IMG/VR virus record: IMGVR_UViG_2534681674_000034
Location: 1 to 27,605 of that record
DNA length: 27,605 nt
Source: a virus
Lineage: Duplodnaviria > Heunggongvirae > Uroviricota > Caudoviricetes
Direction: 5' to 3' (one strand)
The notes beneath the pieces were generated by a model. It ran no database searches. It was not told where the DNA came from and saw only the letters and a program-made list of their open reading frames with translations. This document shows, in pieces, positions 9,015 to 11,966 of the stretch. Positions within the stretch are counted from its first letter, which is position 1, and each line of letters starts with the position of its first letter. The position numbers and the translations under genes were made by a program.

Positions 9015-9662
9015 TTATAAGTTGAACTGTACACCTTTTGCTACGGCAACAATTTTACACTCTGGTGTAAGTAAGGATGACTGATAGCGTGGATTGAGAG
9101 GGCTTAAATACACAAGCTTCCCATCAATAACTAATTTCTTTATAGTCATAGATGGTTCATTTTTAAGCGGATCCGGAACTATTACAGCGACGATGCTGCC
9201 ATTTTTATAACTTTCTCCTGGCCTTAGGATCACAGTAGCACCAACTGGGATACTCGGTGATCCTGATGGGTTATGCATTGTGTCATCAGGCATTGAAACG
9301 GCAAAATCACCTTCCTCGACATCAAAGAATGTGGTGATCCTATCGACATTTCCCATTGTTTTCTCTCCTTTTAAGATTAGGAAAGAAATCGCCTCACCCC
9401 ACGAAAGGTAGGGGATCTTGGTGCCTGAGGTACTTTGTACAAAAGATAATTCAGGAGACGATACTCCATATAGGAGATAGGACTCAGTAGTTCCTAATGC
9501 CTGGGCTAACTTACTTAGAGCTTTGCTACCTGGTTCGTTTAGATCTTTCTCCCAGTACCCTATAGTAACCCCAGTCACGCCTGAAAGCTTACCCAGTTCT
9601 ACTTGGGTCAGCCCCTTATCTTTTCTAAGTCTCTTAAGCCTGATGCCAAGGCTTTCCATCAT
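9015..9662 (-). CDS. CI-like prophage repressor (N-terminal HTH-XRE, C-terminal S24 LexA-like autopeptidase)
   Basis: Translation has an HTH region (GLTQVELGKLSGVTGVTIGYWE) and a C-terminal S24-like region. Start set at the first ATG (9662) with AGGAGA upstream; the track ORF starts at a TTG at 9674. Confidence 0.85.
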   Translation of the reverse strand: MMESLGIRLKRLRKDKGLTQVELGKLSGVTGVTIGYWEKDLNEPGSKALSKLAQALGTTESYLLYGVSSPELSFVQSTSGTKIPYLSWGEAISFLILKGEKTMGNVDRITTFFDVEEGDFAVSMPDDTMHNPSGSPSIPVGATVILRPGESYKNGSIVAVIVPDPLKNEPSMTIKKLVIDGKLVYLSPLNPRYQSSLLTPECKIVAVAKGVQFNL

Positions 9663-9689
9663 TTTCTCCTGCAAATTGAATATAAATTA

Positions 9690-9756: not shown

Positions 9757-9984
9757 ATGCGAGTTGATGAACTTGTCCAGTTTTTTGGTTCTGTTCAGAG
9801 GGTTGCCGATTTTTATGGGATAACCCGCGAAGCTATTTACATGTGGCGTAAGCGTCCTGGTGAAATAGTTCCGAAGGGGAGGGCTGCGGAAGCTGCTGCA
9901 TACTCCAAGGGGAAATTATCTTTGAACCCAGAACTTTACAAAAAGAAGGATACCACTCAGGGCGAAGGAAAGGGGGATTCATGA
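9757..9984 (+). CDS. Cro-like / YdaS-like small HTH regulator
   Basis: 75-aa ORF, GGAGG SD 5 nt upstream, first gene rightward of the operators. Confidence 0.7.
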   Translation: MRVDELVQFFGSVQRVADFYGITREAIYMWRKRPGEIVPKGRAAEAAAYSKGKLSLNPELYKKKDTTQGEGKGDS

Positions 9985-10406
9985 AAATCAAACATGAGCA
10001 CATCCGCATGGCGATCAATGCCTGGGCCTATCCGGACGGTGAGAAAGTTCCTGCAGCTGAAATAGCCCGGACTTATTTCGAGCTGGGGATGACGTTCCCG
10101 GAACTGTACGACGACAGCCATCCGGAAGCCCTGGCTCGTAATACCCAGAAAATTTTCCGTTGGCTGGATAAAGACACCCCTGATGCTGTTGAAAAAATTC
10201 AGGCTCTGTTACCGGCGATCGAAAAGGCAATGCCGCCTCTGCTGGTGGCCCGTATGCGCAGTCACAGCTCTGAATATTACCGTGAGATCGTCGAACGGAG
10301 GGATCGGCTGGTGAAAGATGTGGATGATTTTGTCGCAGCGGCGATCGCCTGGGGCACCCTGACTAACAGTGGTGGTCAGCCTGGTAATGCTGTTGTCGTG
10401 CATTGA
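9981..10406 (+). CDS. CII-like / YdaT-like regulator
   Basis: 141-aa ORF MKIKHEHI...VVVH, start overlapping the cro-like stop (ATGA). Resembles YdaT N- and C-termini from memory. Confidence 0.65.
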   Translation: MKIKHEHIRMAINAWAYPDGEKVPAAEIARTYFELGMTFPELYDDSHPEALARNTQKIFRWLDKDTPDAVEKIQALLPAIEKAMPPLLVARMRSHSSEYYREIVERRDRLVKDVDDFVAAAIAWGTLTNSGGQPGNAVVVH

Positions 10407-10474
10407 CCAACAATATTCATGCCGGATTTCTTCCGGATGTTCGAGGGTAAAGTTCGGTATCAGATGAGGTGAGT

Positions 10475-11512
10475 ATGGCTAATGCCTGGCTCAGATTGTG
10501 GCATGACATGCCAAATGATCCCAAATGGCGAACCATTGCCAGGGTCTCAGGACAGCCAATCGCAACAGTGATGGCGGTGTATATCCACCTTCTGGTGAGT
10601 GCGTCACGAAATGTCACGACATGTCACGGCGTGTCACTACGTGGTCACATTGATGTCACGACGGAAGATTTAGCAAGTGCGCTTGATGTGACGGAAGACG
10701 TGATTGATTCAATTTTGCATGCAATGCAGGGGCGAGTTCTGGATGGTGATCTTATTTCCGGATGGGAAAAACGCCAGGTGATGAAGGAGGATAACGGTAA
10801 TGTTTCGCAAACCGCAAAATCCCCGGCAGAGCGCAAGAGAGCGCAGCGGGAGCGGGAAAGACTGCGGAAGCAGAACACTGATTGTCACGATGAGTCACGA
10901 CGCGTCACGCATATGTCACGACAAATCACGACAGATACAGATACAGATAAAGAATTAAACCCCACACATAACGCGCGCATGCGCGAGAGTGCTACGACCG
11001 GTGAGTTGAATGACGCGTCGTTGCAGACAGCCGAACCTGAATACCTGGACGGCCTGAGCGAACCGATCGGGAAATTTCCGATGACTGGAGTCTGGCAACC
11101 GTCGCCGGATTTTCGACAGCGGGCAGCAGTGTGGGGTATGGCTCTGCCTGAGCCTGAGTTTACACCTGCTGAGCTTGCCGCATTCCGGGATTACTGGATG
11201 GCGGAGGGGAAGGTTTTCACGCAGGTTCAGTGGGAGCAGAAATTTGCCCGCCACGTGCAGCACGTCAGGGCACAGGTAAAACCAGTCAGCAAGGGGGTAA
11301 GCCATGCAGCATCAGGTGGCACGGCATCACGGGCAGTTCAGGAAATCCGGGCAGCACGCGAACAGTGGGAACGTGACAACGGATTTATCAGCAACGGAAA
11401 CGGCCTGGAAGCTGTGGGAGCTTATGGGGGAGGTGTATTCGAACCGCTGGACACAGAAGAACGGGGCCGCACCTTCGAAGCTCTGGATTGCACAGATTGG
11501 CGCGATGACTGA
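10475..11512 (+). CDS. Replication initiator (lambda O-like functional analogue) with internal origin iterons
   Basis: 345-aa ORF from the ATG with GAGG SD (track gives a GTG at 10469). Contains two iteron arrays within the coding sequence. Followed by a P-like gene. Confidence 0.7.
   Translation: MANAWLRLWHDMPNDPKWRTIARVSGQPIATVMAVYIHLLVSASRNVTTCHGVSLRGHIDVTTEDLASALDVTEDVIDSILHAMQGRVLDGDLISGWEKRQVMKEDNGNVSQTAKSPAERKRAQRERERLRKQNTDCHDESRRVTHMSRQITTDTDTDKELNPTHNARMRESATTGELNDASLQTAEPEYLDGLSEPIGKFPMTGVWQPSPDFRQRAAVWGMALPEPEFTPAELAAFRDYWMAEGKVFTQVQWEQKFARHVQHVRAQVKPVSKGVSHAASGGTASRAVQEIRAAREQWERDNGFISNGNGLEAVGAYGGGVFEPLDTEERGRTFEALDCTDWRDD
10603..10659. repeat. Iteron array 1: six GTCAC(G) repeats at about 10-11 bp spacing
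   Basis: GTCAC at 10603, 10613, 10623, 10633, 10644, 10655. Confidence 0.7.
10884..10948. repeat. Iteron array 2 (four GTCACG plus one ATCACG at ~10 bp spacing) followed by GATACA x3 AT-rich tract
   Basis: GTCAC at 10884, 10894, 10904, 10915; ATCAC at 10925; then ACAGATACAGATACAGATAAAGAATTAAA. Confidence 0.65.
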
Positions 11513-11966
11513 GCAGCAAATCCGGCAGGTCTGCCGCCAGTGCATGGACTGCTGCCGGGCGGGTGAAACATGGCCTCCGGACCTGGCTGAGTTTGTGGCA
11601 CTGATTTCGAAAAGCGGAGCCAATCCATTCGGTCTGACGGTGGATGCTGTGATGGAGGAGTACTGCCGCTGGCGCAATGAGTCCTGGCGATACGACGGAA
11701 GTGATAAGTACCCGTGGTCTCAGCCTGTGCTGTATCACATTTGCCTCGAGATGCGTTCAAAGGGGATTGAGCGCCAGATGACCGAAGGGGAATTAAAACG
11801 GCTTGCAGAACGGCAACTGACGAAATGGGCAAAGCATGTTAGTAACGGCCTGAGCGTTCCGCCAGTCCGGCGACAACTGGCGGCCCCCAAACGCCCGTCG
11901 GGGCCAACGCCAATTGAGTTGCTGAAACAGGAATATGAACGCCGGAAAGCGGCTGGTTTTGTTTGA
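11304..11966 (+). CDS. Lambda P-like replication protein (helicase loader); start uncertain (11304, 11424 or 11505)
   Basis: C-terminal two-thirds resemble lambda P from memory (FVALI...YCRWR...YPWS...). ATG at 11304 has AGGGGG SD but overlaps the O-like ORF by 209 nt. Confidence 0.65.
   Translation: MQHQVARHHGQFRKSGQHANSGNVTTDLSATETAWKLWELMGEVYSNRWTQKNGAAPSKLWIAQIGAMTEQQIRQVCRQCMDCCRAGETWPPDLAEFVALISKSGANPFGLTVDAVMEEYCRWRNESWRYDGSDKYPWSQPVLYHICLEMRSKGIERQMTEGELKRLAERQLTKWAKHVSNGLSVPPVRRQLAAPKRPSGPTPIELLKQEYERRKAAGFV

Follow-up and report, generated by a model that had tools for sequence, protein, structure and literature searches.

The question raised by this locus is whether two clusters of short repeats lying inside a single phage gene belong to the replication origin read by the protein encoded around them, or whether they serve control, another DNA-binding protein or simply the amino acid sequence that they specify. 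The window (the whole stretch of DNA analysed, 27,605 nucleotides) derives from a lambdoid prophage of E. coli O157:H7, and the gene in question, of 345 codons, occupies positions 10475..11512 on the + strand. As judged from its matches to PHROG "replication initiation protein" families, the 345-aa gene is a phage replication initiator of the O-like kind. In the encoded protein, a winged-helix N-terminal domain takes up aa 1-100 and is followed by a basic helix at aa 117-133; a disordered linker, aa 143-193, then leads to a DnaT-like domain at aa 201-267. The N-terminal domain has a fold of the DnaD/replisome-organizer type and superposes structurally on the DnaD-NTD / RepA_N winged-helix fold; many family members are named "phage replisome organizer" at NCBI. 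The basic helix PAERKRAQRERERLRKQ is encoded at 10823..10873 (+) and is predicted by AF2 as a helix spanning aa 117-133 with moderate confidence (pLDDT about 57-76).

The C-terminal domain gives the sole Pfam match of the 345-aa protein (DnaT, PF17948, E 1.4e-17, aa 201-267), and Foldseek aligns it with 4ou6/6aeq at 51-58% identity and a TM of about 0.9 (to target); it has the C-terminal, ssDNA-binding three-helix domain characteristic of DnaT. Assignment of the whole protein to full-length DnaT (NCBIfam PRK02854) was rejected, as it scores 93 bits where the cut-off is 201 and aligns at profile positions 80-156 only. Membership of the lambda O family was likewise rejected, as Pfam gave no Phage_rep_O match and the PHROG matches are to other initiator families.

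The first array (10602..10664, +) consists of six units of the form (t)GTCACG(a), whose exact GTCAC cores begin at 10603, 10613, 10623, 10633, 10644 and 10655 and are separated by 10, 10, 10, 11 and 11 bp, just as the initial annotation had described them. The second array (10883..10934, +) contains GTCAC cores at 10884, 10894, 10904 and 10915, spaced by 10, 10 and 11 bp, followed by a degenerate fifth unit, ATCACG at 10925, a position that reads GTCAC in most close relatives. The earlier count of four to five units from 10884 therefore stands, the fifth being ATCAC, whereas 229 bp, and not the approximately 225 bp first given, separate the last core of array 1 from that which opens array 2. 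All array cores lie on the + strand as direct, head-to-tail repeats with mean spacings of 10.4 and 10.25 bp, and both arrays thus have the multiple direct repeats at helical-turn spacing that define the iteron type. The phase between the two arrays varies wholly with the helical repeat that is assumed (10.4, 10.5 or 10.6). Repeat-finding, which had been proposed as a check, returned period-10 arrays at both places: Tandem Repeats Finder placed them at 10603-10648 and 10884-10921, together with a period-6 repeat (ACAGAT, 3.8 copies) at 10931-10953.

The pentamer itself is not enriched, since GTCAC occurs in the 27.6-kb window at chance level (45 observed versus 44 expected); it is the phasing that stands out. 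Across the 27.6 kb, these two arrays are the sole cases in which any 5-mer recurs at least four times in a chain spaced by 10-11 bp; in 300 first-order Markov simulations the longest phased chain had 2 copies in 265 runs and 3 in the other 35, as against the observed 6 and 4-5. A lone inverted core (GTGAC on the + strand; 10688..10692, -) lies 33 bp past array 1; at its Val codon all 21 representatives use GTG, whereas Val codons elsewhere are variable, and in a clade of Ralstonia phages the corresponding inverted core reads CGTTGC.

A phased repeat inside a gene could in principle be a by-product of the protein, that is, of a repeated peptide or of a low-complexity loop and linker with no function in the DNA, and the high conservation of S44, V47, T48, G57, H58, V61 and T62 in the family agrees with such an origin. 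Against it, the period of 10-11 bp is no multiple of 3, so that the GTCAC core is translated in all three codon phases into different peptides (ASR, VT and CH/GH). Moreover, among 21 representatives at less than 93% nucleotide identity, a single codon is used in 9 of the 12 codon columns with a synonymous site in the core and in 0 of 63 outside; the mean synonymous entropy is 0.13 bit in the cores versus 1.21 bit outside (Mann-Whitney p 6.6e-8), and the spacer codons between cores vary freely. In a clade with the core GCAACG, the switch of core changes the encoded residues in both arrays (VT to AT, GH to GN). The frozen synonymous sites and the three-frame translation effectively refute the by-product explanation, whose probability we regard as negligible, and the repeats are under DNA-level selection that is independent of the protein.

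Array 1 encodes residues 43-63, a low-confidence loop or hairpin in the N-terminal domain (AF2 pLDDT 62-70 at aa 41-60 versus more than 90 in the flanks), and array 2 encodes residues 137-153, where the disordered linker begins. Array 1 is present in relatives with 4 or 6 copies, the 6-copy form being longer by 21 bp, or 7 codons, and array 2 has 3-9 copies in close relatives. Two units, of 10 + 11 bp, make up two helical turns and also seven codons, and the length of the arrays changes in steps of 21 bp; the case illustrates how coding and origin needs can be reconciled, through 21-bp steps and through the placing of arrays in a loop and a disordered linker.

If the repeats are read by a protein, the identity of that protein becomes the next question, and it was approached through about 230 related loci, in which this layout is found again with differing cores. 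The loci compared include 80 diverse IMG/VR loci, 73 from bacterial genomes and 6 from phage records. Approximately 340-500 nt into the gene, 79 of the 80 viral loci have a phased array of 3-9 units, as do the loci of the genome set and the phage records, with a core that varies by clade (GTCAC, GCAAC, GTGAC, GTAAC, GAAAC, CGAAC and others). An upstream array accompanies it in 59 of 110 representatives, always with a core identical to that of the downstream array; the view that two separated arrays are unusual is thereby contradicted as far as this family is concerned.

The core covaries with one residue of the basic helix. Across approximately 90 representative homologues, those with the core GTCAC have K at residue 121 in 46 of 47 cases, those with GCAAC have S in 11 of 11, those with GTGAC have T in 9 of 9, those with CGAAC have A in 8 of 9 and those with G(T/A)AAC have V in 12 of 13. 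This rule came from the viral set and was then checked on the genome set, which was obtained later, and it held there (for example, K in 23/24). In the window, the candidate iteron-reading residues are K121 (10835-10837) and Q124 (10844-10846), both encoded on the + strand. The core classes are scattered with respect to overall domain similarity; for instance, homologues L132 (GTCAC; K,Q) and L140 (GCAAC; S,F) share 77% identity, whereas L132 and the window protein share only 38%. The clades that show this covariation belong to the Alpha-, Beta-, Gamma- and Deltaproteobacteria and to further groups.

Such covariation is the expected outcome if the initiator protein binds the repeats. The competing suggestion that another protein binds them, whether a host factor, the prophage repressor or Cro, or YdaT, draws on the regulator genes that lie immediately upstream, namely a cI/LexA-like repressor gene (9015-9674, -), a Cro-like gene (9757-9984, +) and a YdaT/CII-like gene (9981-10406, +), which make up the immunity and early-control module. 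This suggestion is very improbable, for the core tracks initiator residue 121 across clades while the neighbouring genes and the C-terminal domains of the family loci are mosaic, and the search for host-factor sites returned no IHF consensus and only DnaA boxes with at best one mismatch in unconvincing places.

A specificity code may be read from these pairs, in which K would correspond to TC, S to CA, T to TG, V to (T/A)A and A to CGAACG. The relation is correlative and could partly reflect shared descent. In its fuller form, which we advance tentatively and at somewhat less than an even chance, residue 121 of the basic helix would pick the central dinucleotide of a 10-bp iteron, G-N-N-ACG, with residue +3 assisting; roughly half of the members carry a copy of the array in the DNA that encodes the loop of the binding domain, and any change of specificity would then require the protein and its sites to be altered at once. 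If the code is true, initiator-origin pairs would be predictable from sequence and could be re-programmed, and cross-firing of origins among the prophages co-resident in O157 would likewise be predictable. The near one-to-one relation between residue and iteron also offers a simple test of how an initiator built of a winged helix plus a basic helix reads DNA.

Directly after array 2, here and throughout the family, lies a purine-rich tract, which in the window (10929..10960, +) is composed of 3.8 copies of ACAGAT and then AAGAATTAAA and is the proposed unwinding element. The initial annotation had called this an AT-rich tract following array 2; the adjacency is borne out, but the A+T content is only moderate (22/32, 69%), and the tract is the least stable 30 bp solely within the gene (nearest-neighbour dG -33.6 kcal/mol, z=+2.4 versus the window), many intergenic stretches of the window being less stable. 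Together with array 2, the tract encodes the disordered linker that joins the two folded domains, a placement shared with lambda O and SPP1 gene 38. It is also a mosaic joint between the N-terminal and C-terminal modules, as DNA similarity to Rac-type ydaU starts at 10933-10949, and the C-terminal domains are mosaic across the initiator family. A common variant of the tract, AGAGTAGAGAAG, stands in one reading frame in 27 of 28 copies, and selection on the DNA is for this reason inseparable from selection for a charged linker peptide. Just beyond the tract is a perfect 12-bp palindrome, CGCGCATGCGCG (10974..10985); a near-identical palindrome occurs at the equivalent position in Rac-SA53 ydaU.

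The gene context was also considered. The initiator gene is followed by a lambda-P-like helicase-loader gene (11505..11966, +, its ORF being open from 11304), which matches Pfam Phage_lambda_P (PF06992, E 8.7e-17) and phrog_109 and carries the RefSeq name "replication protein P". The lambdoid layout with an origin inside the initiator gene, as first proposed, is accordingly matched in its parts: both arrays and the tract lie within 10475-11512, and a P-type loader comes next. Rightward early transcription from the upstream module would cross the putative origin. The search for promoters and terminators found none beyond shuffled expectation, and Rfam, at E values up to 1 over 10200-11300, returned no RNA element; the "terminator-like" matches, all on the minus strand, correspond to the GC palindrome together with the tract.

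From phasing, frozen synonymous sites, the family-wide layout, the covariation of core with core and of core with residue 121, gene context and position, it is likely that both GTCACG arrays are iterons of the protein encoded around them and that array 2 together with the purine/AT-rich tract forms the replication origin of the prophage. The principal alternative grants that the initiator binds the arrays and holds that it does so mainly for control, through autorepression, an intragenic roadblock to transcription or handcuffing as in iteron plasmids, with the unwinding site elsewhere. Array 1 would suit such a role, as a mere 128 nt of coding sequence precede it, no tract of low stability adjoins it and it is missing in about half of the family, as expected of an accessory regulator; titration and cross-talk are also plausible in O157 genomes, which hold up to 3-4 copies of the module, and for SPP1 it has been proposed that gp38 bound at a second site, oriR, halts replication forks and brings about a change of replication mode (PMC6316719). 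Array 2, on the other hand, is near-universal, and the purine/AT tract invariably adjoins it, where the linker is encoded and the mosaic joint lies; this is the origin signature of lambda and SPP1, and the 27.6-kb window holds no other phased array. Control is a good fit for array 1 and not for array 2, and as the main function of the arrays it is unlikely.

Under the origin reading, we infer binding, unwinding, capture of single-stranded DNA, loading of DnaB and any role of array 1 as follows. Derepression would start rightward early transcription, by which the initiator would be made, and its N-terminal half (the DnaD-like winged helix together with the basic helix at aa 117-133) would bind the 10-bp units, consecutive units being about one helical turn apart at the mean spacing of 10.4 bp. 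Recognition of the variable dinucleotide in the core G-N-N-A-C-G would fall to residue 121, probably together with 124. The resulting initiator oligomer would stress the low-stability tract at 10929-10960 until it opened, whereupon the DnaT-like C-terminal domain would take the exposed single strand and the P-like protein would bring the host DnaB. Array 1 would provide accessory sites for the same protein, which most probably feed a cooperative or looped assembly or else act as a brake. In the RefSeq copy of the prophage the integrase is disrupted by an IS, and this putative origin may therefore rarely fire.

Of 5426 complete E. coli genomes, 693 contain the module, O157:H7 genomes often carrying it in multiple copies, and its relatives are found in phages and prophages of many Proteobacteria. 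Replication effects between prophages have been documented in O157 Sakai (PMC2669165), and a known origin would make cross-activation or incompatibility of co-resident prophages predictable and would permit designs that block replication or act as origin decoys. A literature search returned no description of the origin of this initiator family.

With respect to known systems, iteron plasmids (P1 incC/incA, F, RK2 and the RepA_N plasmid pSK41) offer one parallel. In these plasmids, phased repeats are bound by a winged-helix initiator, and a second array can exert control by handcuffing or titration. The window shares with them the phased direct repeats and a winged-helix N-terminal domain; by contrast, their units measure about 19-22 bp versus 10 bp here, and both window arrays lie inside the coding sequence. 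The window initiator gave no sequence match to Rep_3 or RepA_N, and within the plasmid collection the module occurred solely in large plasmids, mis-filed chromosomes and phage-sized circles, with no small or minimal replicon among them.

A second parallel is the Rac-SA53 ydaU/ydaV pair, with approximately 89% DNA identity to the window over a stretch that comprises the C-terminal two thirds of the protein, the tract GATACAGATACAGAT...AAAGAATTAAACCCCACACATA, the GC palindrome and the next gene. Rac YdaU, however, has an N-terminal domain of another type, without GTCAC arrays, and the window gene is therefore a hybrid in which a different specificity module has been joined at the AT tract. An active origin, oriJ, has been reported for the Rac prophage (PMC3945230).

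[quoted passage not shown] Gene 38 contains three GACAC units at 11-bp spacing, approximately 360-450 nt into the gene, in the part that encodes the linker between the N- and C-terminal domains. The two systems thus share short direct repeats followed by an AT-rich tract (itself a repeat in SPP1), the inter-domain location, the relative position in the gene and the existence of a second binding locus. The DnaD/replisome-organizer type of fold in the N-terminal domain here is a further resemblance. They differ in that oriR is about 13 kb away and intergenic, whereas array 1 of the window is in the same gene, upstream of array 2, and in that the C-terminal domain is DnaD-like in SPP1 and DnaT-like here. 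Two of seven family members matched PF09681 (Phage_rep_org_N) at a sub-threshold E of 0.014, and hhalign of the family alignment against G38P found no homology (probability 0.8%), the PHROGs also being different. As no sequence homology to G38P is detectable, analogy to SPP1 is claimed, and not membership.

Lambda iterons are about 19 bp long, have internal inverted symmetry, are spaced and are each bound by an O dimer. The window, by contrast, has units of 10-11 bp in direct, head-to-tail order in place of the four O-binding iterons of lambda, in keeping with the earlier remark that the repeat unit differs, and it adds an extra array in the part encoding the N-terminal domain and a DnaT-like C-terminal domain. 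The similarities concern the overall design: an origin in the middle of the initiator gene, repeats followed by an AT-rich tract, a P-type loader downstream, an N-terminal part that determines origin specificity and a C-terminal part that provides the link to the loader, a mosaic joint at the origin, and a copy number that varies (4 in lambda and 6 in Stx phages; 3-9 in the window family). In lambda, the repeats bound by the initiator and the AT-rich tract after them form the ori within gene O (PMC7466680). Judged by its sequence features, the present locus very probably represents this familiar design, an origin inside the initiator gene, carried by an unstudied and widespread protein family.

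Within the 345-aa initiator gene (10475–11512, plus strand), head-to-tail units with the consensus tGTCACGAc form two arrays. A sequence scan places exact plus-strand GTCAC copies at 10603, 10613, 10623, 10633, 10644, and 10655 in the upstream array (array 1) and at 10884, 10894, 10904, and 10915 in the downstream array (array 2), the latter closed by a degenerate fifth unit on the same strand, ATCACG at 10925; a single core lies in the opposite orientation at 10688. On rereading, the repeats and tract described at 10603–10960 in the initial annotation were found in place, and Tandem Repeats Finder called both arrays as period-10 repeats and (ACAGAT) x3.8 at 10931–10953 as a period-6 repeat. 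With 45 GTCAC occurrences in the window against 44 expected, the number of the motif is at chance level; its arrangement is non-random, with chains of at least four copies of any 5-mer at 10–11 bp spacing confined to these arrays in the whole 27.6 kb, and the longest phased chain reaching 2 or 3 copies in 300 first-order Markov simulations. The DNA encoding a basic helix (ERKRAQRERER) contains another phased chain (the third), with GAGCG copies at 10829, 10839, and 10850 (10829–10854), which probably stems from the repetitive E/R/Q peptide.

Since the period is 10–11 bp, the cores occupy every one of the three codon phases and encode A-S-R, V-T, or C/G-H. In a codon alignment of 21 GTCAC-clade representatives, all below 93% nucleotide identity, no codon variation was seen in 9 of the 12 columns whose synonymous site falls in a core (mean synonymous entropy 0.13 bit), as compared with 0 of 63 conserved-residue columns and 1.21 bit outside the cores (Mann–Whitney p = 6.6e-8). 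The inverted core at 10688 is also fixed (Val is GTG in 21/21), and the codons of the spacers vary, even in the encoded amino acid. Judged by this codon usage, the repeats are selected as DNA; a peptide-repeat artefact was rejected, because the core is read in three phases and its synonymous sites are frozen.

Cluster-level homologues of the N-terminal 162 aa number 931, and DNA was read for 6 phage records, 80 close and 80 diverse IMG/VR loci, and 73 bacterial-genome loci covering Alpha-, Beta-, Gamma-, and Deltaproteobacteria and a few other phyla. With one exception, the 80 diverse viral loci carry a phased array of 3–9 units ~340–500 nt into the gene, and this layout repeats in the bacterial-genome set; in the family loci, a purine-rich tract of GATAMA repeats or AGAGAAGAGTAGAGAAGA directly follows the array. 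The general unit is n-G-N-N-A-C-G-C-C-A, in which NN varies by clade (GTCACG, GCAACG, GTGACG, GTAACG, and GAAACG, with CGAACG and GGAACG as further classes). Two separated arrays had initially been regarded as unusual; instead, an upstream array occurs at nt 90–300 in 59 of 110 representatives, its core always identical to that of the downstream array, and the pair is a common, co-evolving feature, its universal component being array 2 with the tract. Unit number varies among close relatives (4 or 6 in array 1, 3–9 in array 2), the lengths changing in steps of 21 bp, that is, two units or seven codons. In the GTGAC clade (L111, L105, and L116; gene nt 140–300), array 1 grows to 8–10 units and adds tens of residues to the protein, so that the N-domain loop evidently tolerates large iteron-driven insertions. 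The array scans found no phased array in a few distant homologues (L007, from Microcystis phage Mwe-JY25, and L156, L219, L225, L235, and L237), in which the unit may have diverged or the origin may lie elsewhere; some of them sit in very GC-rich genomes.

The PHROG hits of the initiator are to families named 'replication initiation protein', and its sole Pfam match is the DnaT DNA-binding domain (aa 201–267), lambda O being absent from the Pfam/PHROG profile matches. AlphaFold models predict a confident N-domain (aa 1–100, pLDDT >90) except for a loop/hairpin at aa 41–60, an isolated basic helix at aa 117–133, a disordered stretch at aa 143–193, and a C-domain that superposes on the DnaT ssDNA-binding domain with 58% identity. 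Array 1 encodes residues 43–63, the low-confidence loop, and array 2 with the ACAGAT tract encodes residues 137–162 at the start of the disordered linker. When proteins were grouped by iteron core and alignment columns ranked by their information about class, K121 came first (normalised mutual information 0.91) and Q124 next (0.72), both on the basic helix and three residues apart. Among 91 representatives, as plain counts without phylogenetic correction, GTCAC goes with K at residue 121 in 46/47, GCAAC with S in 11/11, GTGAC with T in 9/9, CGAAC with A (and W124) in 8/9, and GTAAC or GAAAC with V in 12/13; the rule was set on viral loci, and genome loci fetched later agreed. The protein of locus L132 (GTCAC; K,Q) shares 77% identity with that of L140 (GCAAC; S,F) over the remainder of the domain, against just 38% with the protein of the window (GTCAC; K,Q); the relation is, on this comparison, not simply phylogeny. 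The covariation gives good, if indirect, grounds for taking the initiator itself as the protein that binds the repeats, and suggests that helix aa 117–133 reads the variable dinucleotide of the core.

The AT-rich element expected right after array 2 was borne out, the tract at 10930–10960 being the least stable 30-bp stretch within the gene; on its position and modest instability, it is a candidate unwinding element. It sits at a domain boundary of the initiator, and DNA similarity to Rac-type ydaU/ydaV genes begins at 10933–10949, where sequence comparison indicates a recombination joint. Because of this low stability, domain boundary, and recombination joint, array 2 and the tract are likely the origin proper. 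AGAGAAGAGTAGAGAAGA is near-identical in many clades, read as (E/D)KSREE (L090 nt 449, L103 nt 437, L112 nt 425), and is kept across hosts from Ralstonia to Desulfovibrio with 27/28 copies in one frame; tract conservation may come partly from the charged linker peptide. A perfect 12-bp palindrome, CGCGCATGCGCG, at 10974–10985, lies 14 bp past the AT tract, is conserved in Rac-SA53 ydaU with one change, and, combined with the tract, is scored as a minus-strand terminator-like hairpin. Convincing DnaA or IHF sites were not found in a scan of the origin region; an RNA family was rejected for want of a match at the element, as was a plasmid replicon after a plasmid collection was searched.

By analogy, the initiator would oligomerise on the phased units, the tract beside array 2 would then open, the DnaT-like domain would hold the exposed single strand, and the P-like protein would bring DnaB. 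Array 1 could aid assembly by looping, or act as a brake, whether as a transcriptional roadblock within the gene that contains it, by titration, or by pairing. That the arrays serve mainly for control is improbable when the whole element is considered and more likely for array 1 alone.

The frame of the adjoining lambda-P-like loader gene is open for 67–68 codons upstream of its RefSeq start at 11505 (11304–11512), and this extension, with a conserved Met and an almost invariant segment, TDLSATETAWKLWELMGEVYSNRWTQKNGAAPSKLWIAQIGA, is found in every relative, Rac-SA53 among them. On the long form, the alignment to PHROG 109 ('P-like helicase loader') starts at residue 14 and that to Pfam Phage_lambda_P at residue 55, and phrog_15931 covers both O-like and P-like proteins. 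Given the open, conserved frame and these alignments, the loader may therefore be 220 aa, in which case the two genes would overlap out of frame over the 3'-terminal 209 nt of the initiator gene.

The window represents an E. coli O157:H7 prophage of the lambdoid type, 100% identical to many O157 chromosomes, that adjoins tRNA-Ser, mtfA, and yeeJ; a cI/LexA-like repressor (9015–9674, minus strand), a Cro-like gene (9757–9984), and a YdaT/CII-like gene (9981–10406) precede the initiator and loader genes. Upstream of this early region, the integrase is split by IS1203 and frameshifted (L172 3144–5507, RefSeq context); this copy is therefore probably excision-defective, with initiator, loader, and origin intact, a combination that, upon induction, would favour amplification in situ. 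Of 5426 complete E. coli genomes, 693 carry the N-terminal/origin module, at 1261 places (matches H41–H60), up to 4 per genome and 3 in several O157:H7 strains, and co-resident prophages of the same specificity could activate or titrate one another's origins.

Phage initiator genes with an embedded iteron origin are a well-known kind, and an origin inside the O-like gene of a lambdoid prophage would be no surprise to a specialist. In lambda, gene O carries iterons and an AT-rich tract in its middle portion (PMC7466680), the same modular layout. In SPP1, gp38 binds direct repeats beside an AT-rich unwinding element inside gene 38 (PMC6316719); scanning that gene located three GACAC at 11-bp spacing and then AACAATGA repeats at nt 377–450, the same relative position as that of array 2, and one that falls within the cloned oriL fragment (PMC5615212). 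Rac-SA53 ydaU shares the GATACAGATACAGAT...AAAGAATTAAACCCCACACATA tract, GC palindrome, and C-terminal part with the window gene, whereas its N-domain differs and lacks GTCAC arrays. No description of this initiator family was found in the literature searched. What sets it apart from the known examples is that its head-to-tail units are very short, a matching second array lies in the DNA that encodes the loop of the binding domain, the C-domain is DnaT-like, and specificity appears to follow a single-residue code. The covariation seen across the family offers a neat, directly testable case.
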